Source: an uncultured virus (IMG/VR IMGVR_UViG_3300046340_000069) (taxonomy: Duplodnaviria > Heunggongvirae > Uroviricota > Caudoviricetes). From it: a DNA stretch of 64,000 nucleotides. The position numbers and the translations under genes are program-made. The notes beneath the pieces were generated by a model. That model did no database searches. It was not told the origin of the DNA and worked only from the letters and a program-made list of their open reading frames with translations. Shown here one piece after another: positions 1,619-59,099 of this stretch. Each line of letters starts with the position of its first letter. Position 1 is the stretch's first letter. The stretch lies in IMG/VR virus record IMGVR_UViG_3300046340_000069; one strand, 5' to 3'.

Positions 1619-1733
1619 TATATGTTAATTTATTGATATATATGTGCCCTACTTTAATTAAAGTAGGAATTTTTTTTAGATAAACGAATAAAACCCTGCT
1701 AAATACTTATGTAATGCAACGTAAGTATGATAA

Positions 1734-2252
1734 ATGGTAGATTTCAGTAAGTTTGACTGGGTGAGTATTTTTAATGTAGTGGCATCTACTGCAAAAATGA
1801 CTAATAATCAGCGCAGATGTTTAAGAACCGAGATCATAGAATTAGCATTATCAAAGCATTCTGGTGGGCAACTCAAATATGTGGGCGACTCAATGAATGG
1901 ATGTGACTTTATTGATAATGATAATATTCGCTACGAGTGTAAATCCAGACAAAAGATGTTTTCTAAATCCAGAAATGGTTGTACTAAAGAAATAATACTA
2001 AAGAACTTTTACAGAAAATCGGAACCCATATCTCACCAAACATTCGATCATATGATTATGATGGATTCTACAGAAAATTCTATTGGAGTAGTTGATTATG
2101 AAACAGCCATCAAATACAGTAATATTACCGATAGTATTATAACTACCAAGATAGCATTGAATGAAATTAACTATGTGACAGAAAAAGTTGTTACTAATAA
2201 TGTCATTGATTTTGAGCAAACCTTGAATACATTAATATTTGCCTCTATTTGA
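1734..2252 (+). CDS. putative PD-(D/E)xK nuclease-like protein
   Basis: E...GCDF...YECK arrangement; lies between genes 44 and 62. Confidence 0.5.
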   Translation: MVDFSKFDWVSIFNVVASTAKMTNNQRRCLRTEIIELALSKHSGGQLKYVGDSMNGCDFIDNDNIRYECKSRQKMFSKSRNGCTKEIILKNFYRKSEPISHQTFDHMIMMDSTENSIGVVDYETAIKYSNITDSIITTKIALNEINYVTEKVVTNNVIDFEQTLNTLIFASI

Positions 2253-2277
2253 CAATTTAATATAAATCTATTATAAT
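2249..2277 (+). promoter_or_regulatory. sigma70-type promoter
   Basis: TTGACA-17 bp-TATAAT. Confidence 0.8.
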
Positions 2278-2305
2278 AGTATATGACTGACTCGAAATAA
2301 ATAAA

Positions 2306-2689
2306 ATGGCACATTCTCTTACCGATTTGCTGAAGGATATAAATGTAAATAAGAAAAATATTATCAGGAATAGCGAAGATAAAAAATATCCATTATATTC
2401 AGTGTTAAAATGCTTGAACGGGATAGATACACTATTATTAGTTAATGAATTAAATCTACGAACTGGGATAGAACCAGCAGTAGCATATGATTATCTAATA
2501 AGTATTATCCCAAGAAAGACTAGATACAATAAGTGGATAAAAACTCAAACTAATCCTGATATTGATTTGATTATGGAATTTTACTCTTACAGCAGAGATA
2601 AGGCGGTCATCTCATTAGAACTTTTAACCCCACAGCAACTTACGGAAATTAGAAATTGTTATGACATCAGCAGTAGCAGAAAAAAATAG
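2306..2689 (+). CDS. 62: clamp loader small subunit (T4 gp62)
   Basis: Size, position between 44 and regA, RKTRYNKWIK and FYSYSRDKA motifs. Confidence 0.85.
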   Translation: MAHSLTDLLKDINVNKKNIIRNSEDKKYPLYSVLKCLNGIDTLLLVNELNLRTGIEPAVAYDYLISIIPRKTRYNKWIKTQTNPDIDLIMEFYSYSRDKAVISLELLTPQQLTEIRNCYDISSSRKK

Positions 2690-3134
2690 TTCCGACCAAT
2701 CTACAGAAATCATCCCTCCATATACTCGACCATCTATTGTAGATTGGTCGGAAGAAATGATGGTAGAGATTACTTTACCAAAAACCTCTAATTATAAAAA
2801 GGTCTACGAGATTCTTACTAGAATTGGCGTGGTATCTAAAGACCAAAAAACACTTTATCAGAGTTGCCATATTCTCAAAATGGATGACAAACTTTGGTTA
2901 GTACACTTTAAAGAATTGTTTGCTTTGCGCGGTAATGGTTCTACCTTTTCCACTGAAGATCTTCGCCGCCGTCAATCTATTATTGCATTATTGACGCAAT
3001 GGAATTATATTACTCCTGTAGTTATGCGTCCAGAATATTCAGAGAAGGTTGATACACGGGGGATCGTGGTTTTACCAACTTCACAAAAAGTTAATTGGTC
3101 GTTAGAGACAAAATATAGTTTACTACAAAATTAA
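2661..3134 (+). CDS. regA: translational repressor RegA
   Basis: EILTRIGV, LYQSCHIL, VHFKELFAL motifs. Confidence 0.95.
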   Translation: MTSAVAEKNSSDQSTEIIPPYTRPSIVDWSEEMMVEITLPKTSNYKKVYEILTRIGVVSKDQKTLYQSCHILKMDDKLWLVHFKELFALRGNGSTFSTEDLRRRQSIIALLTQWNYITPVVMRPEYSEKVDTRGIVVLPTSQKVNWSLETKYSLLQN

Positions 3135-5836: not shown

Positions 5837-6847
5837 ATGAAAACTACTCAAGACCTTCTCAAATCTATTAACAATAAAGGTGCTGCATTTTTAGGCGATT
5901 CCGTGTATTATGGTGAGCGGGAACTGATTGCTACTGACATTCCAATCATCAATGTTGCATTGTCTGGTTCTTTAGATGGCGGACTTCAAACAGGGTTGAC
6001 TCTTATTGGAGGGGCAAGCAAATCTTATAAGACGGTATTATCGCTGACGTGTGCTAAGGCTTATATGGATAAGTATCCAGAAGCACCTTTATTCTTTTTT
6101 GATGCGGAGCATGGGGCGAGTATGGATTATTTTACATCTGTTGGAATAGATACAACAAGAGTAGTTCATATTCCAGTAGTTAGCGTAGAGGAATTTAAGA
6201 ATCAAGCATATGCACTATTAGATAATATTGAGCGTGGGTATAAGTGTATTATGCTCCTAGATAGTCTTGGTGCATTGGCTAGTAATAAAACTATCGAAGA
6301 TACCACAGCAAATAAGAATACTGCTGATCTTACCAGACCAAAAGCAATCAATTTAGTAGCTAGATTGATTACTCCGCAACTAAACGTGAAAGATATTCCT
6401 ATGATTGTAATTAATCATATTTACGAATCAATGGATCAATACACACCAGCCAAAATGGGGGGGGGCAATGGGATCATATATGCCGCAAATACTGCATTTA
6501 TTATCACCAAAACTAAGATCAAAGATGGTCAAGAACTAGAAGGATTCACTTTCAATCTTAATATTTTTAAGTCAAGATATGTTAAAGAGGGAAAAGTGTT
6601 ATCATTTGATGTATTATATGATAAAGGCATTCAACGTTTATCAGGAATATTAGAGTTAGCAGTAGAATTTGGTGCTATTAAACAGGGAGGTGGTTGGTAT
6701 ACCTATGTGGGTGAAGATGGAGAACCGATTGGTAGTAAAATGAGATCTAGTTCTACAGAACTAGAAACTATTTTAACTGGATTGTTAGAATGTGATAAGT
6801 TTAAAAAATTTGTAGAAAAGAAATATAAGTTAGTTTATGCTGAATAA
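5837..6847 (+). CDS. uvsX: RecA-like recombinase UvsX
   Basis: INVALSGSLDGGL, GASKSYKT, LLDSLGALAS, MGGGNG. Confidence 0.95.
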   Translation: MKTTQDLLKSINNKGAAFLGDSVYYGERELIATDIPIINVALSGSLDGGLQTGLTLIGGASKSYKTVLSLTCAKAYMDKYPEAPLFFFDAEHGASMDYFTSVGIDTTRVVHIPVVSVEEFKNQAYALLDNIERGYKCIMLLDSLGALASNKTIEDTTANKNTADLTRPKAINLVARLITPQLNVKDIPMIVINHIYESMDQYTPAKMGGGNGIIYAANTAFIITKTKIKDGQELEGFTFNLNIFKSRYVKEGKVLSFDVLYDKGIQRLSGILELAVEFGAIKQGGGWYTYVGEDGEPIGSKMRSSSTELETILTGLLECDKFKKFVEKKYKLVYAE

Positions 6848-6904: not shown

Positions 6905-9289
6905 ATGGATTTGGAACTTTTAATTTTGTCTGCATTGGTGTTTGACCGAGTATATACTAGTAAAGTCATTACCTTTTTAAAACAGGAATACTTTACTAGT
7001 CCTGGCACTAAAAATATTTTTATTATGATTAATACTCATTTTGAAAAATATAGTAGTTGTCCAACCATAGAAGTGTTGGCTATAGAAGCATTGAATATAA
7101 CAAATATCACTGCCCCACTAGCTAAAGATATTGAATCCAATCTAAACAAATTGTGCAAGACGGAATATAGTTTAGATTGGTTAACTGATGCTACCGAAAA
7201 ATTTTGTAAGGAGCGTGCAGTTTACTTGGCAATTGTAGAATCAATTGAGATTCAAGATGGGACTAACCCCAATAAACCCGTAGATGCAATCCCTGATATT
7301 TTATCAAAGGCATTAGCAGTATCATTTTCCACTGATGTTGGTGTTCAATACCTGACTTCCGCAGAAGAACGATATGACTATTACAATACCGTCGATACTG
7401 ATAAAATACCATTTGGTCTGAAACACCTAGACAATATAACTAATAACGGATTAGCCAGAAAAACATTAAATCTGATCGTTGCCTCAGCTTCGACTGGCAA
7501 AATGCAACCAGTCTCAGAACCAGTTCTAACCCCTCTAGGATGGTCTACTATGGGTGCTATTCGTCCTGGTGACTATGTGATTGGTTCTGCTGGTCTTCCT
7601 ATCAAAGTATTAGCTATTCATCCTCAAGGAGTACAGGATGTATATACAGTAAAGACTATGGATGGGGTAGATATACGTTGTGGTAAAGACCATCTATGGT
7701 CTGTACATACAAATGGTAGTAAAAATTTAGTTACTAAAACTACACAAGAACTGATTGATAGTGGATTATACAATAATATTCAAAAAAGAACTGGAAAATA
7801 TACTAAATCTTACAAATATGCTTTGCCTACATTTGTGGGAATACAGGGTGGGAAAAATATTATTTATGCTTATGCACTAGGATATTTTATTTTAGGTGGT
7901 CGATTTGTTTCAGATACCGTAAGAGTAGTGTGTTATAAACAATACCAACAGAAACTACAGGAATTATTAGAAACTGTATTAGGAACACCTGCACCTATAA
8001 CAATTTCAGGTAATATGTTTTATTCCCTGACAGATATACATACAAAATTAAGACAATATACTAACTGGAACGCTTATCAACTTGGTAATAAACATTTGCC
8101 AATAACAACAATTAACTGGCAGAATTGGGATTATAATTCTAGGTTAGAACTGCTAAGCGGTATCCTAGATTCTAATTTTATGAAATATAATAAATTTTCA
8201 TGTGATTCTAAAGACATTTTGATTTTAGTACAAAATTTAATTCGATCTCTTGGTGGAGTTTGTCAGCCGATAGTATTATCTAAAAATGCTGGGTATTATA
8301 GTAGTGGATTTCATGCCAGTATTAAATTTGTTATGCCAGTATGTCCATATAAACTTCACACAGCATGGAATCCTTGTAATAGTAAGTTTAGAACTAATAT
8401 TACATCCATCACTAAGGAAGATTATCAGGAAGAGCAAGTTTGTATTACAGTTGATGCAGAGGATCATTTATACGTGACTACTGGGTTTAAATTGACTCAT
8501 AATAGTATCATGTTGTGTCATCATGCAGCTAAGTGTTTAGAGCAAGGTAAAAATGTACTATTTGTCACATTAGAGATGAGTGCCGAAGCTATTAGCCAAA
8601 GAATCGATGCAAATTTAATGCAGGTGAATATTAATACATTATATAGTGGAACTAAAGACGCATATCTTAATAAATTTAACAAAATAAAACAAAAAACATT
8701 AGGACAATTGTATATAAAAGAATATCCAATTTCTACTGCTCATGCGGGAAATTTTAATGCGTTGATTGATGAATTAGCAATTAAGAAAAGCTTTCATCCT
8801 GATATAATCATTATTGATTATCTTAATATTTGTGCGTCCTCTACAAATAGTAGTAATAGTAATTCGTACGAAAGAGTAAAGTGTATAGCAGAACAATTGC
8901 GTTCATTAGCACAGAAAAGAAATCTTCCTGTACTCAGCGCAATTCAATTAAATCGTTCAGGTAGTGGCAATACCTCACCAGATATGGCAGATATTGCTGA
9001 TTCGTATGCGTTGGCTATGGTGGCTGATTTTATTTTAGCATTGGTGACTAATGAATCATTAGCAGAACTGGAACAGATACTATGTTGCCAAATTAAAAAT
9101 AGATATGCAGATGTGGGTAAACCTAAAAAATTTATATTAGGATTAGATAAACCAAAAATGACATTTTATGATGTGAATGTTGAATATAATGATTCTGGAG
9201 ATAAATCAGAATTTATAGATGTAGAAGGTAGAGAAGTAGTAATCAGTCTCAATAAAAATAAAAAACAAGTAAGTAGATATATTGAGTAA
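6905..9289 (+). CDS. 41: replicative helicase (T4 gp41) containing an intein
   Basis: TEKFCKERAVY, Walker A ...TGK/S, VTLEMS, IIDYLNIC, QLNRSG. Confidence 0.95.
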   Translation: MDLELLILSALVFDRVYTSKVITFLKQEYFTSPGTKNIFIMINTHFEKYSSCPTIEVLAIEALNITNITAPLAKDIESNLNKLCKTEYSLDWLTDATEKFCKERAVYLAIVESIEIQDGTNPNKPVDAIPDILSKALAVSFSTDVGVQYLTSAEERYDYYNTVDTDKIPFGLKHLDNITNNGLARKTLNLIVASASTGKMQPVSEPVLTPLGWSTMGAIRPGDYVIGSAGLPIKVLAIHPQGVQDVYTVKTMDGVDIRCGKDHLWSVHTNGSKNLVTKTTQELIDSGLYNNIQKRTGKYTKSYKYALPTFVGIQGGKNIIYAYALGYFILGGRFVSDTVRVVCYKQYQQKLQELLETVLGTPAPITISGNMFYSLTDIHTKLRQYTNWNAYQLGNKHLPITTINWQNWDYNSRLELLSGILDSNFMKYNKFSCDSKDILILVQNLIRSLGGVCQPIVLSKNAGYYSSGFHASIKFVMPVCPYKLHTAWNPCNSKFRTNITSITKEDYQEEQVCITVDAEDHLYVTTGFKLTHNSIMLCHHAAKCLEQGKNVLFVTLEMSAEAISQRIDANLMQVNINTLYSGTKDAYLNKFNKIKQKTLGQLYIKEYPISTAHAGNFNALIDELAIKKSFHPDIIIIDYLNICASSTNSSNSNSYERVKCIAEQLRSLAQKRNLPVLSAIQLNRSGSGNTSPDMADIADSYALAMVADFILALVTNESLAELEQILCCQIKNRYADVGKPKKFILGLDKPKMTFYDVNVEYNDSGDKSEFIDVEGREVVISLNKNKKQVSRYIE
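7502..8503 (+). mobile_element. class 3 intein (334 aa, Met1) in the gp41 P-loop, degenerate LAGLIDADG domain
   Basis: GK/MQPVSEPVLTPLGW...HLW...VCITVD...LTHN/S; LLSGILDS. Confidence 0.9.
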
Positions 9290-9978: not shown

Positions 9979-10032
9979 TATTTAAAAAAATGCGGATAAA
10001 TATGAATATTAAAAGTATTAAATTTAATAATT

Positions 10033-16538: not shown

Positions 16539-17507
16539 ATGGATATAATAAGCGATTTGTCTTTAGTATTGGATAAATTCAAAAAAACTGGAGAATCTTA
16601 TACATTTAGGTGTCCTATTTGTGGAGATAGCAACAAAAATAAGTACATCACTAGAGGCTACCTATTTCTGTCTAAAGAGCGGACTTATATCTACAAGTGC
16701 CACAACTGCGGAGTGTGTAAGTCTTTAAATAATTTTTTGAAAGACTCATTTCCTGATTTATATCACAAATATCTGTACAGCAATTATACATCTCAACCTG
16801 AAACTAAAAGGATAGTTACCTTTAAGTCTCCTAATAGAATATATCGACCCATCATCTTTGAAGAATTACCCACTATATCAGAACTTCATAAGAATCACGC
16901 TGCCAAGTTATATTTGCAACATCGCAAAGTACCAGAAGCATTTCTCAGAAATGCTTATTACACAGAGAATTGGAAAAAATTCGCAAATCAGTATAAGCAC
17001 ACTTATAATAATATAGATAAGGAGGAATCAAGGATTGTTATACCGTTGATCATAAATGATCAGGCAGTAGGGTTTCAAGCGAGACTGTTGGGAGTATCCG
17101 TGGGAATTAGGTACATCACAATCATGCTGGCGGACGCTCCTAAGATATACGGTCATGATCTAATTGATTGGAATAAGCCAGTATATGTTGTGGAGGGCGT
17201 GTACGATTCACTTTTTGTCCCAAATTGTATCGCAATGCTAGGTTCTAGCATAGATTTAGATTTTCTGAATTCCAAATCCAACACTAAATTTGTATTTCTG
17301 TATGACAATGAACCATATAATACACAGATTGTTAATCAAATGAAGAAAGTAGTGGATTTGGGGCATTCAGTTTGCATTTGGGACAAATCCTACAAAGAAA
17401 AAGACATTAATGATTGCCTCATTAATGGTACTGACATTAATCCTGTTATAAATAATGATTATTCTGGCACGAGAGCGAAATTAGAAATTAGTAATTTTAT
17501 TAAATAA
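16539..17507 (+). CDS. 61: DNA primase (T4 gp61)
   Basis: FRCPICGDS...YKCHNCG zinc finger; VEGVYDSLF, YDNEP, KDIND Toprim motifs. Confidence 0.95.
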   Translation: MDIISDLSLVLDKFKKTGESYTFRCPICGDSNKNKYITRGYLFLSKERTYIYKCHNCGVCKSLNNFLKDSFPDLYHKYLYSNYTSQPETKRIVTFKSPNRIYRPIIFEELPTISELHKNHAAKLYLQHRKVPEAFLRNAYYTENWKKFANQYKHTYNNIDKEESRIVIPLIINDQAVGFQARLLGVSVGIRYITIMLADAPKIYGHDLIDWNKPVYVVEGVYDSLFVPNCIAMLGSSIDLDFLNSKSNTKFVFLYDNEPYNTQIVNQMKKVVDLGHSVCIWDKSYKEKDINDCLINGTDINPVINNDYSGTRAKLEISNFIK

Positions 17508-18035
17508 TTGTGTTATAATGATGTTGTAATTAATATCACTAGTAGATTTGATATAAGGACAAATGGGCAAAATGTAAAAATCTATGAACTAGTATATGGA
17601 GAAAAGACTAATCAAAACTATGTACTCAATCATTTAGATGACAATCCTAATAATAATAAGCTATGTAATCTAGAATTAGTCACTAATTGGTTCAACTCAT
17701 CAATACAGAAGAAGTCATCTGGACTAGATATTGGTATAAACTATAATCGTGATAATCGTGTTGGCAGTTATCAAACAAAAATTGCTATGCCAAGAGTAAA
17801 TGGTAAGAGAATAACTTTTGGTTCACAATCTATTGATTATCTACAAAACTTACATTTCCAATTTGGAGTAAAGTCAGGATTAGTGTCTTCTGAACGATAC
17901 TTACAAGAAGTACCTAATTGGTTGCCAGATCTAACTATCCAATTCAAACCAGAACATCAGATCAAACTAGAACTACTAATTGAAGCACACATAGAGAATC
18001 AACTTACTTGGGATAAGCCGATTAGGTTGGCATAA
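17508..18035 (+). pseudogene. N-terminally deleted HNH-AP2 endonuclease (paralog of 48958-49653)
   Basis: NHLDDNPNNNKLCNLELVTNWFN...ENQLTWDKPI; no good start, the predicted start overlaps the family's TGTGTTATAAT promoter. Confidence 0.75.
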
Positions 18036-18084
18036 TCTCACTAAGTCTGTTATAATAAAAAGGAACAAAGCATTACGACACAAA

Positions 18085-18453
18085 ATGAAATCGTTAGATC
18101 CAATTTTCAGCTTTTCCGATCATCCGTCATTAAAAGGCGACCCACGCAGCACGTTATATTGTTGCCCTGATAGAAATAACCATATTAAATTCTACTATGC
18201 CAACTATGAAGAATTAGTAGAAATCGGATTGAGTAGTTTAGCTTATTGTAACATGGGCGAACCGTATCGAGTACTAGCCAGACTATATTTTATTAAATTT
18301 AATAATTGTCACAAAGAAACTATTAATATCTCAATGGAAGATGCAGTACGACTATACAAATATTTGCAAAAAATTAATATGATGGTATTAGTATCTAAAG
18401 ATTTATTAACTGACAACACTTTTAAAAAATATTTAGAAGTATACGAAGATTAA
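18085..18453 (+). CDS. hypothetical protein
   Basis: ATG ORF after TGTTATAAT promoter. Confidence 0.7.
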   Translation: MKSLDPIFSFSDHPSLKGDPRSTLYCCPDRNNHIKFYYANYEELVEIGLSSLAYCNMGEPYRVLARLYFIKFNNCHKETINISMEDAVRLYKYLQKINMMVLVSKDLLTDNTFKKYLEVYED

Positions 18454-18557
18454 TTTTTAATTAAATACTTTATATTATTAAGATGATTCACTTTGATTAT
18501 ACAATCATCAGAAGACTAAATTTTTGATTAAATATTAACCCACAACAGTAAAAAATA

Positions 18558-21500
18558 ATGCAAGTATTTAAAAGAGATGGCAGCATAGAACCATTAGATC
18601 TAGAAAAGATTCATACAATGGTATTTCGTGCATGTGAAGGGGTTGACGATGTGTCCCCTTCATTAGTAGTAATGAATAGTAAAATTCAATTAACAGATGG
18701 GATTGCTACAGAATATATTCAAAATCTATTAGTGACATCTGCTAATAATTTAATTACTATCGAAGAACCAAACTATCAGTACGTGGCAGCACGACTACTA
18801 CTATTTGGACTATATAAATCTTTATATCCACAGTGGAAAACATTTGGGTTAGTACATATATATCACCATATCACTAGATTCAAAAACAAGTATGATTCTA
18901 TCTTATTTGACAGTTACTCTAAAGAAGATTGGGACGTACTAAATGAAGCAATTGACCATAGTAAAGATTATAAATTTACATATGCGTCGTTACAACAATT
19001 AATTGATAAGTATCTAATTCAAGACAGATCTACTGGATTTGTATATGAGATTCCGCAGTATGCGTATATGCTGATTGCCGCCACAGTATTTCATGATTAT
19101 CCAGTAGAAACTAGATTAGCTACGGTTATAGATTACTACCATGCAATCTCCGATCATGAAATTAATCTCCCTACGCCTATTATGAGTGGCGTGAGAACTA
19201 AACAACGCAATTTTTCTAGCTGTTTTCCTGCTGGACAATTAGTGCATACAAGTACTGGATTAAAGCCAATTGAAACTATTTCCGTTGGAAATATGGTGTT
19301 GACTCATGCTGGAAGAATGATGTCAGTATTAGCTACGAATGCTAAATATTTTGAACAAAAATATGTAGCTATTGATACTTATTCTACTTTGAATGATCAA
19401 TTTGTTTCAACTGATGATCATTTAATATTTGCGGCTAAGGATGTCGGATGTATTCGTGGTTCTGAACATCGTTCTTGTATATGCAGTCAGGGTATTTATA
19501 AATATTGTGAGAAATATCCCAGACAATATTCTGAAGATTGTATTAATTTATACAAAAATGATTTATTTGAACCAAAATGGACACCAGCAAAAGAATTAGA
19601 TGATAATTATTGGGTACATGTGGCATACAATAAATCTGTAGTAAATACTGAGTATTTAATTATATCAGATATAATTGATATTGGTAGTCGATACGATATC
19701 AATGAAGAAGGATTGATACATTACAAAAGTTATAGATCTGATATATGGTATGTACCTAATAAAATTTATTTGAATGAAGAGTTATTCAGATTAATTGGGT
19801 ATTATTTGGCGGAAGGACATGCTACTGATGGTGGCAGTATGGGATTTACCTTCGGCAACAAAGATAAATATATTATTGATGATTGTGTAAATATTATTCA
19901 AAACGTATTTGGGTATACAGTAATTCCCTCTAATAATCCTTACGACAATAGTACTAAAGTTAGTATATGCTCTAAAATTATTACTAACTTGTTTATCCGG
20001 CTGTGTAGCAATAAATTTGATAAAAAGTTTATTTGTTATGAATTAATGAATGCTTCTATAGAATTACAAAAGCAATTACTGATTGGAGTAATTCGGGGAG
20101 ATGGTTGTGCGTATTCGCAGGGATTGCAGGTAGGGTTGTCTAATAAACAACTAATTTATCAATTATTTGATATATCTTTGCGATTAAAATTGTCACCAAC
20201 TATAAATGTGCAAAAATATAATGATGGTATACGCCAAGACGTGTATACTATATATTTTCCTAGAAGTGCAAATTATGATTTTATTATGGAAGTTGGTAAA
20301 GATGTACATAAAGTAAATTATACTAGTAAAACATACGCTTATGGGATATGGAAAGATGACAATTATTTTACTAAAATAAAAAGCGTTAAAATTATTAATA
20401 GTATTGACGATAATATAGTGTATGATTTACAAATTGCTGGAGATGAAAGTTTTGTAGTTTCTGGATTATCTGTACACAATTGCGCTTTACTTGATTGTGA
20501 CGATTCTACTTTATCTATATCTGCTAATAATCAAGCTACCGCTATGCTCACTGCCGCATCTAGTGGTATTGGTTTAAATGTGGGACGAATGAGGTCTATT
20601 GGTAGTAGTATCAGAAATGGTACAGTTATTCATCCTGGTATCGTCCCATTTTTGAAAATCTTTGAATCGACAGGTAAGGCATTTAGTCAGGCGGCGAGAG
20701 GTGGAAAACTAACCTGCTATTACCATATTTTCGGATACGAGATCGAAACAGTCATTCAACTCAAGAACAATCGTGCAAATGAAGTATCTTCGGTGAAGCA
20801 TCTTGATTACTGTATTTGTATTTCAGAATTGTTTTATAAGAGATTTATAAATAACCAAAATATCACACTATTCTGTAATAGTGATACACCAGGATTGTAT
20901 GATGCTTTTGGCACCCCAGCATTTGATAAATTATATGAATATTACGAGAAAAAGGATGGGGTGAGAAAGAAAGTTGTATCTATGCAAAAACTGTTTGTAG
21001 ATCTAATGGAACAACGATCTGAAACGGCGCGGATTTACATAATGAATGTCGATCATGCTAATACACATTCTCCGTACTTAGACGGAGTATATATGAGCAA
21101 CTTGTGTGTTGCCCCAGAAACATTATTACTCACCAATAAAGGATATTTGCCAATTGGTACGCTAGAAGATCAATCAGTAACGATATGGAATGGATGGGAG
21201 TGGTCTGATACGGTAGTAAGAAAAACTGGAATTGATCAGAAACTAATCAATATTAAATTCCAAGATGATAAAGGTAATATTCATAACATAGAATGTACAG
21301 AATATCATAAGTTTTTTATACAATCCCGTAATGATGTAATTGAAGTTCGTGCAAACGATTTGATTGTTGGGCAATATATTCAGAATTGGAATCCTCCAGA
21401 ATTTCTAATTGATTCTGATATAACTTTACATCAATATCATAGAGATTGGTGGGTATATAGCACACATAATATCGAAAGATTATCTGATACTTATTGTCTT

Positions 21501-21698
21501 ACCGAACCAAAAAGAAATAGAATGGTAATAAATGGGATTCTCTCTGGGCAATGTGTCGAAATCATCCAGCCAAGTCACCCAATATCCGATATCAATGATA
21601 CTGGAATTCACGAACATACTGTAGCAGTTAAGAATAATAAATTAGACGAATTTATTAAGCTATCTCAAGACAATGAGTTTCTTGAATTTCCTATCTAA
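18558..21698 (+). CDS. nrdA: class Ia ribonucleotide reductase alpha subunit, N-terminal piece, two inteins
   Basis: ATP cone (MQVFKRDG), LPTPIMSGVRT, FSS/C, SNL/C-x-E; stops before the C462-equivalent. Confidence 0.95.
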   Translation: MQVFKRDGSIEPLDLEKIHTMVFRACEGVDDVSPSLVVMNSKIQLTDGIATEYIQNLLVTSANNLITIEEPNYQYVAARLLLFGLYKSLYPQWKTFGLVHIYHHITRFKNKYDSILFDSYSKEDWDVLNEAIDHSKDYKFTYASLQQLIDKYLIQDRSTGFVYEIPQYAYMLIAATVFHDYPVETRLATVIDYYHAISDHEINLPTPIMSGVRTKQRNFSSCFPAGQLVHTSTGLKPIETISVGNMVLTHAGRMMSVLATNAKYFEQKYVAIDTYSTLNDQFVSTDDHLIFAAKDVGCIRGSEHRSCICSQGIYKYCEKYPRQYSEDCINLYKNDLFEPKWTPAKELDDNYWVHVAYNKSVVNTEYLIISDIIDIGSRYDINEEGLIHYKSYRSDIWYVPNKIYLNEELFRLIGYYLAEGHATDGGSMGFTFGNKDKYIIDDCVNIIQNVFGYTVIPSNNPYDNSTKVSICSKIITNLFIRLCSNKFDKKFICYELMNASIELQKQLLIGVIRGDGCAYSQGLQVGLSNKQLIYQLFDISLRLKLSPTINVQKYNDGIRQDVYTIYFPRSANYDFIMEVGKDVHKVNYTSKTYAYGIWKDDNYFTKIKSVKIINSIDDNIVYDLQIAGDESFVVSGLSVHNCALLDCDDSTLSISANNQATAMLTAASSGIGLNVGRMRSIGSSIRNGTVIHPGIVPFLKIFESTGKAFSQAARGGKLTCYYHIFGYEIETVIQLKNNRANEVSSVKHLDYCICISELFYKRFINNQNITLFCNSDTPGLYDAFGTPAFDKLYEYYEKKDGVRKKVVSMQKLFVDLMEQRSETARIYIMNVDHANTHSPYLDGVYMSNLCVAPETLLLTNKGYLPIGTLEDQSVTIWNGWEWSDTVVRKTGIDQKLINIKFQDDKGNIHNIECTEYHKFFIQSRNDVIEVRANDLIVGQYIQNWNPPEFLIDSDITLHQYHRDWWVYSTHNIERLSDTYCLTEPKRNRMVINGILSGQCVEIIQPSHPISDINDTGIHEHTVAVKNNKLDEFIKLSQDNEFLEFPI
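19221..20480 (+). mobile_element. intein with LAGLIDADG endonuclease (420 aa) before the C225-equivalent
   Basis: CFPAGQLV...LIGYYLAEG...IGVIRGDG...VYDL...VHN/C. Confidence 0.93.
21105..21551 (+). mobile_element. mini-intein (149 aa) ending in Gln, before the C439-equivalent
   Basis: NL/CVAPETLLLT...CTEYHKF...TYC...NGILSGQ/CVEI. Confidence 0.9.
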
Positions 21699-21765
21699 TA
21701 TCCTCTCAGACCCCTCTAGGATGCCCTACAACGTACGATAATTAAAAATATGACTACTGACATCT
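21698..21765 (+). repeat. dispersed repeat copy at the nrdA break point
   Basis: ctctcagacccctctaggatgccctacaacgtacg...aaatATGactact; supplies the start codon of the second nrdA piece. Confidence 0.8.
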
Positions 21766-22721
21766 TCCGCATAGCAACAGACCGCCAATTCGATCCTAAT
21801 ACCGAAACATTAGTAGATGATGTAAAGATAATTGACAGACTGCCACCAGGCATCACATCTTGTGTATTAGGCGCAATCAGTTGGGATAAGTTATCTGACA
21901 ACATGTCAGATAACTTTATCAAAATGAAACGATGGTGTGATTTAGAGATCAGATCATTAAATCAGATCATCGACATACAGGAATACAATATCCCTAGTAC
22001 AGAGATAGCCACTAAATCCGCAAGATATTTGGGGGTAGGGATTAATGGTTATGCAACATTTGCTGCACGATTAGGTTTATCATATAATCATAAAGAATTG
22101 TGGCAAATCACTCACGATCTTGCAGAAATGCAGATGTTTTGTCTATTATCTGCATCTAATAACTTAGCCAAAGAAGTAGGTGAATGTAAATGGTTTTATA
22201 AAACTAAATATTCACAAGGAATTCTACCTATCGATCACTACAGGAAAAGTGTAGATGATGTAGTTCCTAATAATCTTAATATGGATTGGGAAGGGTTGAG
22301 AGAATCAATTTTGATGAATGGACTCAGAAACAGTGCATTTTCTGCGGTGATGCCTGTACAATCATCTTCTGTAATTAGTAACAGTACTAATGGAATCGAA
22401 CTACCTCGCGCACCATTACAAATCATAAAGTCAAAGAATCGATTAATTCGACAAATAGTAAAAGATTTTAAAAAATTAGAAGATAATTATGAGTATTGTT
22501 GGGAAAAAAGTACAAATACAGGATATATCAATATTTGTGCCGTAATTCAAAAATTCTTCGACCAATCTATCTCAGCCAACTTGTATTACGATCCTAAATG
22601 GTTTTCAGACCAAACTATACCAATGGGTACGATGATTGGTGATGTCTTATATGCGTACAAGATGGGATTAAAAACATTGTATTATGCTAATTCAAATGAC
22701 GGTCGAGATGATTATGAATAA
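21750..22721 (+). CDS. nrdA: ribonucleotide reductase alpha subunit, second piece
   Basis: ITSCVLGAI (C462-equivalent), RYLGVG, GLRNS...MPVQSSS, QKFFDQSISAN, GLKTLYY; lacks terminal CxxC. Confidence 0.93.
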   Translation: MTTDIFRIATDRQFDPNTETLVDDVKIIDRLPPGITSCVLGAISWDKLSDNMSDNFIKMKRWCDLEIRSLNQIIDIQEYNIPSTEIATKSARYLGVGINGYATFAARLGLSYNHKELWQITHDLAEMQMFCLLSASNNLAKEVGECKWFYKTKYSQGILPIDHYRKSVDDVVPNNLNMDWEGLRESILMNGLRNSAFSAVMPVQSSSVISNSTNGIELPRAPLQIIKSKNRLIRQIVKDFKKLEDNYEYCWEKSTNTGYINICAVIQKFFDQSISANLYYDPKWFSDQTIPMGTMIGDVLYAYKMGLKTLYYANSNDGRDDYE

Positions 22722-22784
22722 TCCAGTTAAATGTGTTAAAATAGATAAATAATTAATTACCCACCAATATATAAATCAAGAACC

Positions 22785-22958
22785 ATGCCAGAACAACATC
22801 CAGAATTGCTAACCGAAATATTGCCATCACACCCATTACCAATTCCTCAGCCAGAATTGCTGACAGAAGTACTGTCCACTTCTCCACATAAACGTAAGTA
22901 TTGCACACCAATGATCATTAATGATGACACAGAAAGTTGCGAAAGTTGTAACGTTTAA
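22785..22958 (+). CDS. free-standing NrdA C-terminal CxxC redox-tail peptide (57 aa)
   Basis: Manual translation MPEQHPELLTEILPSHPLPIPQPELLTEVLSTSPHKRKYCTPMIINDDTESCESCNV; acidic-CESC-xx-stop end typical of NrdA. Confidence 0.8.
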   Translation: MPEQHPELLTEILPSHPLPIPQPELLTEVLSTSPHKRKYCTPMIINDDTESCESCNV

Positions 22959-22986
22959 AAGGTATTAGGTAATATAAATCCCACTA

Positions 22987-23014
22987 AATCCCACTAAATT
23001 TAGTGGGATTTATT
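22987..23014 (+). terminator. hairpin between nrdA tail ORF and nrdB
   Basis: aatcccactaa-at-ttagtgggatt. Confidence 0.6.
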
Positions 23015-23038
23015 AAAATTATTAAATTTAATAATAAC

Positions 23039-25102
23039 ATGTCAGTAATAAATTTAGACAACTCAATCGACTTCACGAAGCAAACTCAATTTTTCGATCA
23101 ACAATTAAATTTACAACGATACGATAAGTATAGATATCCTCTGTTACATCAACTATACAAGACTCAAAAATCATACTTTTGGAGTCCGACGGAGATAACA
23201 TTACAGAAAGACAAAATAGACTATTCAAACTTGACCGAACAAGAAAAATTTATTTACACATCCAATTTAAAATATCAAATTTTGTTAGATAGTGTGCAAT
23301 CTAGAAGTACATTGTTAGCATTTTTGCCATTTGTATCTCTACCAGAATTAGAAAAAAATATAATTATTTGGGGATTTTTTGAGACTATTCATTCGGAATC
23401 ATATACTCATATCATTGAGAATGTATATAATAAGCCATCTGAAATTTTTGATAATATTCTGAATATTCCAGAAATAGTAGAGCGAACCAAACAAGTCACT
23501 AAATATTATGATGAGTTTATTGATTTTTCTAGTAGTTGGAATACCTCTAGTATAAAGACATTATTAGTAGACGGTAATGTTACCGCTAATCAAACATTAT
23601 TAGAATTAAAACGTTCATTATATCTAGCTATAGTGAATGTGAATATCTTAGAAGGTATTAGATTTTATACATCATTCGCTTGCTCATTTGCCTTTGCAGA
23701 AAATGCTAAAATGATTGGTTCTTCTGATATTATTAGTTTAATTGCCAGAGACGAAGCATGTTATACCACTGGACATGAAGCTTTGACGGATACTGGATGG
23801 AAACTAATTGAAGATATTACAAAAGAAGATAAAGTGGCACAATACACCAACAATAATGCAGTAGAATTTGTTCACCCCACTGCTATTATTAATAAACAAT
23901 ATATTGGTGATGTATATCAATTTATAGACGATTCCGGCAGAATTGAACAAATTGTTACTGCCGATCATCGAATGGTGTGGCGTGAGTTATTTACAGGCAG
24001 AATGAAAGAATCGGTAGCAGCTACCACTAATTTTACATCAAGTAAGGCAATTGTGGTTAGTGGTATAGTTTTAGCAGGAGCAGTAGAATTAAGTCCTATA
24101 GAAATTTTAAATATATACACTGAATATTGTGGTACTGTTTTAGAAGTATTAGAACATAAATTAAAGGTGGAGTTTAATGTAAAAAATGAGACTAATTGGA
24201 GTAAATTGGGTAGATCTTTAGTTGCATTAGGAATTAGTTACGATTACTATATTACATATAAAACTGGAGTATATACCATAACTTGCGAGATACCAACAGC
24301 TTCTTTACAAAAATATTTTAGTTGGGTGAATATCCAGGGTAAGTCTACATTATGGGCACAAAATTTAATAAATTTATGTAGGGCGTTGAATGGTAACAAA
24401 TCTTGTATGTCTTCCGTTCCTGGTAAGTTTAAATTTACTATCAATCATACTAAGAGTTTGAAAAAGTTACAACAAGTGTTTGCTATTAGTAATTGGAAAA
24501 TATATCATACTCACCCGTCAAAAAAATATGTTGGGTATAATATTAACGTATTGACTACTAGAAATTCTCATATTACTTCAAAAACAGAGAAGGTTAAACA
24601 AAATTATAGTGGCAAGGTTTATTGTTTATCTGTTCCTTCTGGTGCATTTTTTGTTAGATATAATGAAAAGGTTTCAGTTGGGGGCAATTGTCATACTCGA
24701 CTTACTGAAACTATTATTAAGAATTGGCAAGCTGGTGAGGATAAAGATATTCTTAATATTATTAAAGAAGAAGAACAATTGGTATATACTATGTTTGATC
24801 TAGCAGTAGCGGCGGAAATAGAGTGGGCAGAATATCTTTTCAAAAATGGTAGTATATTGGGGTTGAATGTAGAACTATTATCACAATATATTAAATTTGT
24901 GGCGAATCGTAGACTTAAAGCGATCAATATGAAGCCACTGTATGACGATGTTTCTGTCAAGAATCCTTTGCCCTGGATCGATAATTATCTGAAGTCTTCT
25001 AATATAAGTGTCGCGCCACAAGAAACGGAGGTCTTATCATACCAAATTGGTAATATTGACAAAAATATAAGTGAAGGGCAATTCAGTAATTTTGAATTGT
25101 AA
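23039..25102 (+). CDS. nrdB: ribonucleotide reductase beta subunit with intein
   Basis: FWSPTEI, QILLDSVQ, FETIHSESY, LEGIRFY, IARDEA/CH, VAPQETE. Confidence 0.95.
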   Translation: MSVINLDNSIDFTKQTQFFDQQLNLQRYDKYRYPLLHQLYKTQKSYFWSPTEITLQKDKIDYSNLTEQEKFIYTSNLKYQILLDSVQSRSTLLAFLPFVSLPELEKNIIIWGFFETIHSESYTHIIENVYNKPSEIFDNILNIPEIVERTKQVTKYYDEFIDFSSSWNTSSIKTLLVDGNVTANQTLLELKRSLYLAIVNVNILEGIRFYTSFACSFAFAENAKMIGSSDIISLIARDEACYTTGHEALTDTGWKLIEDITKEDKVAQYTNNNAVEFVHPTAIINKQYIGDVYQFIDDSGRIEQIVTADHRMVWRELFTGRMKESVAATTNFTSSKAIVVSGIVLAGAVELSPIEILNIYTEYCGTVLEVLEHKLKVEFNVKNETNWSKLGRSLVALGISYDYYITYKTGVYTITCEIPTASLQKYFSWVNIQGKSTLWAQNLINLCRALNGNKSCMSSVPGKFKFTINHTKSLKKLQQVFAISNWKIYHTHPSKKYVGYNINVLTTRNSHITSKTEKVKQNYSGKVYCLSVPSGAFFVRYNEKVSVGGNCHTRLTETIIKNWQAGEDKDILNIIKEEEQLVYTMFDLAVAAEIEWAEYLFKNGSILGLNVELLSQYIKFVANRRLKAINMKPLYDDVSVKNPLPWIDNYLKSSNISVAPQETEVLSYQIGNIDKNISEGQFSNFEL
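23759..24688 (+). mobile_element. intein (310 aa) inside the ExxH iron-ligand motif of NrdB
   Basis: DEA/CYTTGHEALT...VTADHRM...VYCLSVP...VGGN/CH. Confidence 0.9.
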
Positions 25103-25156
25103 TTATTGTTCATAAATCACTATAGAAAAGAGCAATTATGGAGTTGCTCTGATTAA

Positions 25157-25233
25157 CATGCTCTGAGAGGGGTGTAGAATGCTGTGTAACGCACAGAAAT
25201 TATAAATAAGATTATTATTATCAAAATATAAAA
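25157..25233 (+). repeat. dispersed repeat copy with late promoter
   Basis: ctgagaggggtgtagaatgc...aacgcac...TATAAATA (25201-25208); runs into ATG 25234. Confidence 0.8.
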
Positions 25234-25695
25234 ATGATCAAAGAATTGATGAAGATCAAAGATCTAACAGAATTTGAATGCGATTGTGAAGGGGTTAGAG
25301 ACAAACTATTCAATACTCCAGAATTATTGACAATAACAGAACTGATTTATTTTTTGAGGATGTCTAATAATTTAGATTACTGGATCACTGGTACTCATTA
25401 TGCAGTGATGAAATTAGTATCTTTATTAAGAATGCTCGAACCAGTTTATGGGGTATATAAGGAACAAGATAAAGAAAAAAATAGAATTATCACTAGTATT
25501 TGTTTAAATTTTATTAGCAGCGAGAAGGGGTCATTACAGTATGCTGCATTGGATTTGGTAGAGGCTGGGATTTGTGCGGAGTATCAACCAATCGTTGATT
25601 TATTCCCCGTTATTGAGAAAATAATTATTGGTGACAGACATACCTCCAAATATGTATTATCTCATTTAAAATTAATTAAGGATTCGCATATATGA
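25234..25695 (+). CDS. hypothetical protein
   Basis: 153-aa ATG ORF. Confidence 0.7.
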   Translation: MIKELMKIKDLTEFECDCEGVRDKLFNTPELLTITELIYFLRMSNNLDYWITGTHYAVMKLVSLLRMLEPVYGVYKEQDKEKNRIITSICLNFISSEKGSLQYAALDLVEAGICAEYQPIVDLFPVIEKIIIGDRHTSKYVLSHLKLIKDSHI

Positions 25696-26255
25696 GAGAA
25701 TTAGTAGAATCAGTTAAAGTATTTTATCTACTAACAGAAAGTGGAGATAGACCACCATCCAGTGAGATAGAACACGACGAAAAGAATAAACATTTGAAAA
25801 CAAAATTAACAAAATACGCATATTCATCTAAGTATAACCACCCAAATCATTTTTCTCCAGATTATTCAGGGACATTTCATGGTGTATCTTGGAATACAGA
25901 TCATGACACTGAAAAAATGGATAAAAACCAAAAAATAGGAATTGTACAAGATGCCATACACTTACAAAAACATTTTGTAAAAAATGTAGCAAAACCTGGC
26001 GATGTGCTACGAAGTATACCAGATGAAGATGATGATGGCGAAGGTGGTAATAAACGCGGAAAACTATATCAAAAAGTTGGTTTTGGTAAATTAGGAAATA
26101 GAACTTCTCAGTATGGAATAATTAAACAACATCCTCATGACCACGATGACGAAACTAAACGAGGACAACATTATCTACATCCGTTAGAACACGAAGAAAT
26201 AGAATTGTCTCGAAAAAAATATTACGAAGAACGTGCAAAAAATGGCACCAAATGA
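25692..26255 (+). CDS. hypothetical, possible virion-internal protein
   Basis: ATGA overlap; LVE/LTE leader; NKRGKLYQKVGFG. Confidence 0.65.
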   Translation: MRELVESVKVFYLLTESGDRPPSSEIEHDEKNKHLKTKLTKYAYSSKYNHPNHFSPDYSGTFHGVSWNTDHDTEKMDKNQKIGIVQDAIHLQKHFVKNVAKPGDVLRSIPDEDDDGEGGNKRGKLYQKVGFGKLGNRTSQYGIIKQHPHDHDDETKRGQHYLHPLEHEEIELSRKKYYEERAKNGTK

Positions 26256-27869: not shown

Positions 27870-28379
27870 ATGAGTATTTTATGCGATAGTAATCAATTTT
27901 TGATAGGAATCCTGATTAATCAACAACAATATGACACAATAGATGTAGATTATGTAAGAAATCAATATATTAATCGATTGCAGAATTATTCTGCACATTT
28001 CTATAATTATGGGTCAGTAATTTTATGTTTTGATAATAATAATTACTGGCGGAAGGACGTGTTTCCTTATTATAAGTATAGTAGAAAGGAAGATCGGAAA
28101 AAATCGACAATCGACTGGTCAAAAATATTTAATGACATCAATATGATTAAACAGGCATTAAAAAATACTTCATATTCCGTAATGGAAGTAGATGGTGCCG
28201 AAGCCGACGATATTATTGCAGTTATCTCAAAACACGAATATATTAATAATACTAGCACTATGATTATCTCTGGTGATAAAGATTTTGTCCAGTTATTAAA
28301 GTATCCAACAGTTAGTATTTATAATAGTCAGAAAAATATTTTATTAAAGGGAAAAATTTGTGAAAACCAATTTTTATGA
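27870..28379 (+). CDS. rnh: T4-type RNase H/5'-3' exonuclease, N-terminal part
   Basis: YWRKDVFPYYK, AEADDII, SGDKDFVQL. Confidence 0.9.
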   Translation: MSILCDSNQFLIGILINQQQYDTIDVDYVRNQYINRLQNYSAHFYNYGSVILCFDNNNYWRKDVFPYYKYSRKEDRKKSTIDWSKIFNDINMIKQALKNTSYSVMEVDGAEADDIIAVISKHEYINNTSTMIISGDKDFVQLLKYPTVSIYNSQKNILLKGKICENQFL

Positions 28380-28719
28380 TCAAGAACAATTGAGTGAACT
28401 ACTATCATTACATATAGCTAAAGGTGATCGCAGTGATGGTATACCTAATATTCATTCAGATGACAATACATTTGTTGATAAAATAAGACAGGTTCCTGTA
28501 ACCAAAAAAATTCTAAGTAAATTTCATATAGACCCTGAGCAATATTGTCAGGATTGTGATATAATAGATAATTATCGGAGAAATAAATTATTAATAGATT
28601 TCTCTATGATTCCAGACGAGATAGAACAGACTATCTTAGAGGAATACAAAAAGACTAAAAAGCCAAAATTACTAAAATCAAAAACATATGACTTCCAAAA
28701 ACATAAATCCAGCATCTAA
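28360..28719 (+). CDS. rnh: T4-type RNase H, C-terminal part (+1 frame)
   Basis: KGDRSDGIPN, NYRRNKLLIDFSMIP. Confidence 0.85.
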   Translation: MKTNFYDQEQLSELLSLHIAKGDRSDGIPNIHSDDNTFVDKIRQVPVTKKILSKFHIDPEQYCQDCDIIDNYRRNKLLIDFSMIPDEIEQTILEEYKKTKKPKLLKSKTYDFQKHKSSI

Positions 28720-30168: not shown

Positions 30169-30372
30169 ATGGAAAATAAAGATACAACGTATGATAATCG
30201 AACAATAGAACAAAAGTTTGCTCAAATAACATTTGAAAAACAAGTGAATCAAATGAGTCACAAACAAGCACAGCAATTTTTGATATATATGCACAAAATG
30301 AATACTATCAAAGAAAACAGTTATCAGGCTATGTTAAAGCAATCTTGGTTCAAAGATTTTGTCCATGACTAA
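30169..30372 (+). CDS. nblA: phycobilisome degradation protein NblA
   Basis: IEQKF...FEKQVNQMSHKQAQQFL...KENSY..MLKQSW matches the NblA pattern. Confidence 0.9.
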   Translation: MENKDTTYDNRTIEQKFAQITFEKQVNQMSHKQAQQFLIYMHKMNTIKENSYQAMLKQSWFKDFVHD

Positions 30373-33130: not shown

Positions 33131-33155
33131 GCGAGATTTATTAAATTTAATAATT

Positions 33156-40218: not shown

Positions 40219-40247
40219 TAAATATATTAAATTTAATAATTTAACTG

Positions 40248-43945: not shown

Positions 43946-44029
43946 TTTATTAAATTTAATAATTTATACCAATATTTATAATAATAGTCTATTTTCTAAA
44001 TATTGATATCAAGCATTAAATTTAATAAA

Positions 44030-47288: not shown

Positions 47289-47513
47289 ATATCAGATTAG
47301 AGGCATCAAACAGATGTCTCTAAATTTTTATCAAATTAATAAACTTGCAAATAACATATGATTCGGTAATTTATTATATGTTTCCAAGACAATATAATAT
47401 GTTTGGCAAACCTAATTATATAACTGCCTATCTAGATTATTATGAGTAATTTAATATGATTCACGATATAGTCCTACTCATAAATATTAGTAGGACTATT
47501 AAATTTAATAATT

Positions 47514-59080: not shown

Positions 59081-59099
59081 ATATTAAATTTAATAAGAC

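Follow-up and report, generated by a model that had tools for sequence, protein, structure and literature searches.

Directly behind the split nrdA gene of an uncultured T4-like phage lies a 57-codon mini-ORF that ends in a Cys pair and is almost certainly a real, conserved gene, and the NrdA polypeptide encoded immediately upstream of it lacks the C-terminal Cys pair that is typical of class I ribonucleotide reductases (RNRs). The best explanation that the sequences offer is a separately translated gene of a freshwater T4-like cyanophage clade. We further propose, as a reading that is probable without being strongly so, that the encoded peptide acts in trans as a disordered redox shuttle and constitutes the third piece of the RNR alpha subunit.

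The nrd cluster and its split nrdA gene

The window (the whole 64,000-nt stretch of DNA that was analyzed, with a G+C content of 33%) belongs, judged by its gene content, to a T4-like phage, with genes for clamp-loader subunits, for RegA, for a RecA/UvsX-like protein and for a DnaB/gp41-type helicase, as well as for gp59, gp32, RNase H, a gp33-like late coactivator and baseplate proteins. All 24 runs listed with the stretch are freshwater DNA metagenomes, with no RNA run among them. A 67-aa homologue of NblA (phycobilisome degradation) is encoded at 30169-30369 (E 1.6e-13) and indicates a cyanobacterial host. Every gene of the nrd cluster lies on the + strand (Table 1).

Table 1. Features in and around the nrd cluster, with their positions in the window
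Feature	Position	Strand	Description
HNH-type endonuclease ORF	17508..18035	+	just 5′ of the nrd cluster; Pfam HNH_3, E 8.9e-6
nrdA-a	18558..21698	+	1046 aa; ATP-cone, all-alpha domain, first half of barrel
Spacer nrdA-a/nrdA-b	21699..21749	+	51 nt; copy of dispersed cassette
nrdA-b	21750..22721	+	323 aa; second half of barrel; Pfam Ribonuc_red_lgC positions 224-522 of 523
Spacer nrdA-b/mini-ORF	22722..22784	+	63 nt; A/U-rich unstructured leader
Mini-ORF, proposed name nrdA-c	22785..22958	+	57 aa
Twin PELLTE(I/V)L motifs	22800-22817 and 22851-22868	+	plus KRKY patch
CESC	22938-22949	+	then two residues and the stop
Hairpin 3′ of mini-ORF	22974..23013	+	16 bp; fold -21.6 kcal/mol, z = -4.21
nrdB, small subunit	23039..25102	+	one intein; Pfam Ribonuc_red_sm in two stretches

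The product of nrdA-a matches the Pfam families ATP-cone, Ribonuc_red_lgN, Ribonuc_red_lgC, Intein_splicing, Hint_2 and LAGLIDADG_3. Two inteins interrupt it, one spanning residues 222-641 (nt 19221-20480) and the other residues 850-998 (nt 21105-21551), both placed directly before a catalytic Cys, the first with the LAGLIDADG domain; with the one in nrdB, the RNR genes of the window hold three inteins. The nrdA gene is split between the equivalents of Cys439 and Cys462 into two adjacent genes, such that the barrel breaks between positions 2-213 of Ribonuc_red_lgC, found in nrdA-a, and positions 224-522, found in nrdA-b together with Cys38. According to the accessible text of PMC3045599, nrdA of Aeromonas phage Aeh1 is split by mobE at that same site, and the enzyme is active. 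The two cases are alike in the site at which the barrel is split, in belonging to T4-like phages and in having pieces with extra terminal extensions (PMC3045599); however, only in Aeh1 does mobE stand between the pieces, and that text describes no detached tail. In the window, in contrast, no endonuclease gene stands in the 51-nt spacer between the pieces, the HNH ORF lies 5′ of nrdA-a rather than between them, nrdA-a carries its two inteins, and the putative tail forms a third piece. Given that the a/b split falls at the Aeh1 site, the cluster most naturally reads as encoding an alpha subunit in three pieces.

One relative, the 59-kb IMG/VR contig L013, is the sole one whose DNA was read directly; scans of viral contigs with P0002, P0006, P0007 and P0133 gave no additional contig, and scans of metagenome and genome contigs gave none either. 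It has the same nrd architecture as the window, the two lineages being 74% identical. Its nrdA-a has the second intein only, the first being missing, and nrdA-b starts 1 nt past the nrdA-a stop, again with no endonuclease gene between the pieces. The L013 nrdA-b ends in RDDMET and is followed by a 53-nt spacer, a 57-codon ORF with the twin motifs that ends in CSACSC, a hairpin and nrdB. The mini-ORF thus stands directly behind a tail-less nrdA-b in both the window and L013, as the initial annotation had anticipated in asking for relatives with a CxxC-less nrdA followed by a CxxC mini-ORF.

NrdA-b ends short of the redox tail

Class Ia NrdA carries a flexible C-terminal Cys pair, C754/C759 in E. 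coli numbering. As described in the excerpts available of three papers, class I and many class II RNRs re-reduce their active-site disulfide via a Cys pair on a flexible C-terminal tail, and the tail pair is then itself reduced by thioredoxin or glutaredoxin (PMC9669993, PMC4520616, PMC5704485); one of them states that re-reduction in class I enzymes relies almost exclusively on a C-terminal double-Cys motif (PMC9669993).

The window NrdA-b has no such pair, as had been noticed from the letters of the DNA: the protein ends in YYANSNDGRDDYE, 11 residues past the YY at residues 311-312. A search with NrdA-b against proteins of similar length gave 445 matches at E ≤ 1e-10, and the best 120 of the 445 were examined. 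Among these best 120, 115 NrdA C-terminal halves end in Cx2C (32) or Cx4C (83) followed by exactly two residues. The five exceptions in this set are the protein of the window itself (P0003), P0004, P0005, P0019, which has CxC, and P0106, in which the second Cys is replaced. Both P0004 (90% identical to the window NrdA-b) and P0005 (74%) are tail-less, and the nearest sisters with a fused tail are P0006 (71%) and P0007 (65%), which align with the window protein up to the truncation point and then continue for 19-26 more residues, the tail ending in CEACNL or CESCKL. Across 50 aligned sequences, Cys38, the partner of the active-site disulfide, and the YY are invariant.

In a maximum-likelihood tree, six NrdA-b proteins (the tail-less ones and the nearest ones with a fused tail) form one clade with a support of 100/100. 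Within it the L013 protein branches first, and the window protein groups with P0004 in a pair whose sister is the fused-tail pair (support moderate, 86/84 and 88/88). The AU test (p = 0.097) does not reject a tree in which the three tail-less proteins are monophyletic. Since tree and test allow both, the tail may have been lost once or twice.

Four stops separate nrdA-b from the mini-ORF

The in-frame translation of 22680-22961 reads YYANSNDGRDDYE*SS*MC*NR*IINYPPIYKSRTMPEQ (asterisks mark stops). The 63-nt gap contains, in agreement with the initial annotation, three further in-frame TAA codons (22728, 22737 and 22746), which with that of nrdA-b itself gives four consecutive TAA; IINYPPIYKSRT stands between the last of them and the MPEQ start of the mini-ORF. 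Since this phage ends 31 of 51 ORFs with TAA, more than with any other stop, TAA is not recoded. The multiplicity of the stops had been held to speak against a single sequencing error, and this holds: an alignment of the window with four IMG/VR contigs across 22650-23050 (5 sequences, 401 columns) shows 100% identity, and 21704-22975 recurs with 0 differences in a 1272-nt Logan contig of a run that carries no flag as a possible source. The identity of the assemblies, together with the contig of a separate run, excludes an assembly or sequencing error. That contig came from one of four runs compared; the contigs of the others spanned the mini-ORF only in fragments and joined nothing across the gap. 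The single joint listed, from 21758 to 23019, has one side of 21 nt and derives from the dispersed repeat.

A promoter-like motif had also been proposed in the gap. The motif itself, TGTGTTAAAAT, is present at 22732-22742 and includes a TGnTAAAAT extended -10 look-alike at 22734-22742, but a scan of the window for sigma-70-like promoters called no + strand site before the mini-ORF, so that TGTGTTAAAAT is best described as an extended -10 look-alike. In the window, the mini-ORF may be co-transcribed with nrdA-b. The hairpin that follows it looks, from the predicted fold, like a terminator or mRNA-end structure closing the nrdA unit before nrdB. The RNA of the gap region (22690-22810) folds poorly, with z = +2.08 and 198 of 200 shuffles folding at least as well; no repeat copy of the region was found elsewhere in the window, and Rfam gave no match at E ≤ 1 over 17000-26000. 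Shine-Dalgarno-like words precede 8 of 51 ORFs (ATG ORFs of at least 120 aa, unfiltered, some of them antisense), and because such words are rare in this phage, a mini-ORF without a ribosome-binding site is normal here.

The arrangement in L013 separates the two genes more clearly. The three nrdA pieces, which share one frame in the window, are in different frames there, the mini-ORF being shifted relative to nrdA-b by (6026-5001) mod 3 = 2, and a perfect TTGACA-17-TATAAT (12/12) stands between nrdA-b and the mini-ORF at 5969-5997, the only perfect one of 13 promoter-like sites in 1.6 kb. Given that the L013 mini-ORF is out of frame and behind its own promoter, readthrough is excluded in L013; since the frames differ between the two phages, the common frame in the window is a coincidence. 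Independent expression of the mini-ORF is plausible from these signals. The L013 hairpin after the mini-ORF (14 bp, z = -7.99) is unrelated to that of the window.

These data bear on whether the peptide could after all be joined to NrdA-b, by readthrough or recoding, by ribosomal bypassing of the T4 gene 60 type, by RNA splicing or by protein trans-splicing, all of which we regard as very improbable. The shared frame of the window pieces would suit such joining, as would the GAA codon that ends nrdA-b and occurs again early in the mini-ORF; yet four consecutive copies of the phage's preferred stop would have to be passed, and in L013 a consensus promoter separates the pieces, which do not share a frame. 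Bypassing is further opposed by the conserved initiator Met of the peptide and by the unstructured gap RNA, and splicing by the lack of an Rfam RNA family and by the length of the gap, which at 63 nt leaves no room for a group I or II intron. As for protein trans-splicing, Pfam detects no Hint/intein domain at the NrdA-b end or in the peptide. A split intein was likewise considered and rejected, with no Hint halves in either NrdA-b or the peptide; the Cys at peptide residue 40, a possible +1 residue, is not conserved.

The mini-ORF belongs to a family of small peptides

As initially annotated, the window mini-ORF encodes 57 aa ending in IINDDTESCESCNV (CESCNV) and contains PELLTE twice, at residues 6-11 and 23-28, with CESC at 52-55. 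A word-index search with this peptide found a 55-aa relative, P0002, with 74% identity. A profile built from three peptides and run against 1.84 billion representatives returned, at E ≤ 1e-3, five standalone peptides of 49-64 aa and no fused long form; a 728-aa repeat protein (E 3.6e-4), matched in 12 stretches, was regarded as spurious. A further search at 90% clustering added P0132 and P0133, and the family now comprises eight distinct peptides of 49-64 aa, including that of the window. Its features are twin (E/Q)LLTE(I/V)xP motifs, a KRxY patch and a Cx2C followed by exactly two residues, which ends eight of eight members. In the alignment of the eight, the columns without any variation are the E and P in motif 1, the P, L, E and V in motif 2, the R and Y of the patch and both Cys, and in seven of eight an initiator Met directly precedes the first motif region. 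That the mini-ORF is open with conserved motifs in eight distinct peptides is more than chance would give.

Between the window and L013 mini-ORFs, divergence is of the coding type (pN 0.40 versus pS 0.66 over 50 codons); dS is saturated, making the dN/dS of about 0.36 a rough value. The peptide evolves fast, with 61% identity where NrdA-b is 90% identical. AlphaFold2, run on a 6-row alignment, predicts no secondary structure (pTM 0.16, mean pLDDT 66), and a peptide without a predicted fold fits what is expected of a flexible tail. No reference library gave a convincing match: Pfam gave no match at E ≤ 0.01, the best PHROGs match had only E 0.28, the ESM Atlas gave no usable match, and a tblastn search with the family member P0125 against 50,697 phage records gave none at E ≤ 1. 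All family members come from metagenomes, and the NrdA of the nearest cultured phages is at most 49% identical.

We compared the profile of the eight peptides with 31 fused Cx2C tails using hhalign. Seven columns around the CxxC were aligned, with a local E of 0.0049 and a probability of 7%. Common descent of the peptide and the NrdA tail is plausible from position and end signature; beyond those seven columns, the likeness to fused tails is not significant.

Conservation of this kind also bears on whether the locus might be a decaying remnant or an artefact, that is, an nrdA pseudogene in pieces, a leftover tail ORF or a gene with mis-assembled stops. Heavy fragmentation (two inteins, the a/b split and the detached tail) and the purely metagenomic origin of the family, with no cultured relative, would be in keeping with decay or artefact, which we nonetheless consider extremely improbable: five assemblies and the contig of an independent run are identical, the catalytic and radical-path residues of NrdA-b are conserved (Cys38 and YY, in the 50-sequence alignment), the architecture is kept across lineages only 74% identical, the mini-ORF stays open with its motifs in eight lineages, and phage Aeh1 has a working enzyme with its a/b split at this site (according to the accessible text of PMC3045599).

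Linkage to tail-less nrdA-b and a possible order of events

The window peptide and the window NrdA-b are each found on 11 contigs, the longest of 156,966 nt. The peptide P0132 and the tail-less P0004 have a common longest contig of 9102 nt, the pairing being read from the equal sizes. The mini-ORF is therefore paired with all three of three tail-less lineages, directly in the window and L013 and by equal longest-contig size for P0004/P0132, an association that the initial annotation had suggested searching for.

The pairing appears to extend to one lineage with a fused tail. P0125, a mini-peptide, and the fused-tail P0006 come from common sources, the longest contig being 4850 nt (again paired from equal sizes), and this lineage probably has both the cis tail and the mini-protein. 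Such coexistence implies that the peptide is not simply a clipped-off tail and that it may predate the loss of the tail; its role may also be a different one or one that comes on top of the shuttle. The longest contigs of P0007-type proteins (8850 and 13,906 nt) match none of the longest contigs of the eight peptides, and this lineage may be without the mini-ORF. The three states suggest a series from tail only (P0007), through tail plus peptide (P0006/P0125), to peptide only (window, P0004 and L013). The full scenario, in which the alpha subunit consists of three gene products, the disordered mini-protein tail docks via its twin LLTE motifs, and the cis tail became dispensable through a trans copy that had arisen before, is in our judgment evenly balanced between right and wrong.

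A trans-acting shuttle as the proposed function

The barrel is complete across NrdA-a and NrdA-b, NrdA-b is without a Cys pair, and the only pair of the cluster with the right end is that of the peptide; on these grounds we propose a shuttle that works in trans. The alpha subunit would consist of three polypeptides, namely NrdA-a with its two inteins excised, NrdA-b and the peptide. After each turnover, the reduced Cys pair of the peptide would enter the active site formed by NrdA-a together with NrdA-b and reduce the disulfide between Cys38 of NrdA-b and the Cys that follows intein 1 of NrdA-a, and host thioredoxin or glutaredoxin would then re-reduce the peptide. The twin (E/Q)LLTE(I/V)xP motifs and the basic KRxY patch would dock the peptide on the alpha subunit, replacing the covalent tether. 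That the peptide is expressed, docks and acts as a redox shuttle, and what its motifs do, we infer from the comparison of genes and peptides. A complex prediction with four chains (the L013 NrdA-a exteins, NrdA-b and the peptide) gave an ipSAE of 0.12, mark 0.32, values that favor neither binding nor its absence. Glutaredoxin and thioredoxin genes were not found in the nearest phage record, G001, which is 59% complete.

A peptide that is real and conserved could also be something other than an electron shuttle: an RNR regulator or inhibitor that imitates the tail, an adaptor recruiting a particular redoxin, or a protein unrelated to RNR, with the tail-less enzyme re-reduced by another route. 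We consider such an accessory role unlikely, though it is the strongest of the alternatives. It would account for the probable coexistence of the peptide with a fused-tail NrdA-b in the P0006/P0125 lineage, for a likeness to fused tails that is limited to the CxxC end, for the twin LLTE motifs and KRxY patch, which have no counterpart in the nearest fused tails, and for the rapid divergence of the peptide. It does not readily explain why the tail-less lineages, three out of three, keep the peptide next to nrdA-b, or why the Cx2C with exactly two residues after it matches the ends of NrdA tails in all eight peptides; moreover, nothing else in the nrd cluster was seen that could supply a shuttle Cys pair, and class I enzymes almost always need such a pair, as stated in the available text of PMC9669993. 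The trans-acting mini-protein put forward in the initial annotation is thus partly supported, its two foundations being a tail-less NrdA-b and an independent, conserved gene; the P0006/P0125 lineage indicates that the peptide is not just a tail that was clipped off.

Relation to known redox tails

Compared with the C-terminal tail of class Ia enzymes, the peptide shares the end signature, an acidic stretch before it and the lack of a predicted fold, and the mini-ORF occupies the corresponding place, between nrdA's 3′ end and nrdB. In contrast to that tail, the peptide is unattached; its gene is a separate one that has a start of its own and, in L013, a promoter as well, and the peptide has about 40 extra N-terminal residues holding the twin LLTE motifs and the basic patch. 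In yeast Rnr1, the tail of one monomer is said, in work that Zhang et al. reportedly published in PNAS in 2007, to reduce the active site of the neighboring monomer. The likeness to our case is that the Cys pair need not share a polypeptide with the active site that it reduces; the yeast tail, however, is still a covalent part of an alpha chain within the dimer.

The initial annotation knew of no described case of a detached tail. For class I this stands: a literature search, with supplementary tables outside its scope, found no class I enzyme with a detached tail, and PMC3653736, in its accessible text, lists split phage RNR genes with no detached-tail case among them. For RNRs in general it needs qualifying, since in the class II NrdJa+NrdJb of Pseudomonas aeruginosa and other gamma-proteobacteria the Cys pair is on NrdJb, a separate gene product (PMC4520616, PMC5704485, PMC9669993, as excerpted), whose main role is thiol-disulfide exchange (PMC4520616, PMC5704485). 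As far as those excerpts go, the two systems have in common a catalytic chain without a redox Cys pair and a pair supplied by an adjacent, separate gene. They differ in class, NrdJ being a class II (AdoCbl) enzyme whereas the window cluster has class I domains and nrdB, and in the nature of the partner, NrdJb being a zinc-finger domain that is folded, rich in cysteine and about 150-220 residues long whereas the peptides have 49-64 residues, two invariant Cys and no predicted fold. The detached tail would be the first case in class I and the first with a short disordered peptide as the shuttle.

The class I Cys pair is treated as almost universal and as covalent, and a free peptide of about 55 residues, if it indeed serves the enzyme, would mean that tethering is not required. 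It would also provide a simple two-component system for the docking of the tail and the choice of redoxin; the cis tail is disordered and invisible in most structures, which makes docking hard to study there. For phages, it would be a third mode by which RNR genes survive fragmentation, beside inteins/introns and the a/b split of the Aeh1 type. In terms of annotation, the peptides are a family of small ORFs behind nrdA that is unnamed in current libraries.

Candidate mobile and regulatory elements around the cluster

The HNH ORF at the 5′ side of the cluster is, from its Pfam match, a candidate free-standing homing endonuclease. HNH-type paralogues in L013, at 1686..2423 and 8333..9028, bracket the nrd cluster on both sides, and the placement of these ORFs fits repeated targeting of the locus by homing endonucleases.

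The sequence between nrdA-a and nrdA-b belongs to a dispersed cassette of about 45-65 nt (21699-21764 in the window), which includes the ATG of nrdA-b and the codons right after it (MTT...). At least seven further copies are present in G001 (L006-L012), and their alignment displays a conserved core followed by ATGACTAC-like start codons. A several-fold higher contig depth was also recorded in the G001 bin. The cassette is missing from L013 at the nrdA-a/nrdA-b site. By its sequence it looks like a mobile 5′-UTR/start element. T4-type phages carry regulatory cassettes that are comparable to it.

A palindromic A/T motif, TATTAAATTTAATAAT, lies at 23018-23035, 5′ of nrdB, and at about 20 other sites in the window (e.g., 10016-10031, 33138-33154, 40225-40242, 44015-44028, 47497-47512 and 59082-59096). 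It stands 1-5 nt before the ATG of many genes of this phage and is absent before nrdA-b and before the mini-ORF; from this placement it may serve as a promoter or as a translational operator. A RegA homologue is encoded in the window at 2661-3131.

Outside the nrd cluster, the DnaB/gp41-like helicase ORF (6905-9286) is 794 aa long with a DnaB_C match limited to residues 538-720, and in its long unmatched N-terminal part an insertion, for example an intein, might be concealed. Two overlapping ORFs encode the T4 RNase H homologue, 27870-28376 with the 5′-3′ exonuclease N domain and 28360-28716 with RNaseH_C, a pair that may represent another split gene or a frameshift.
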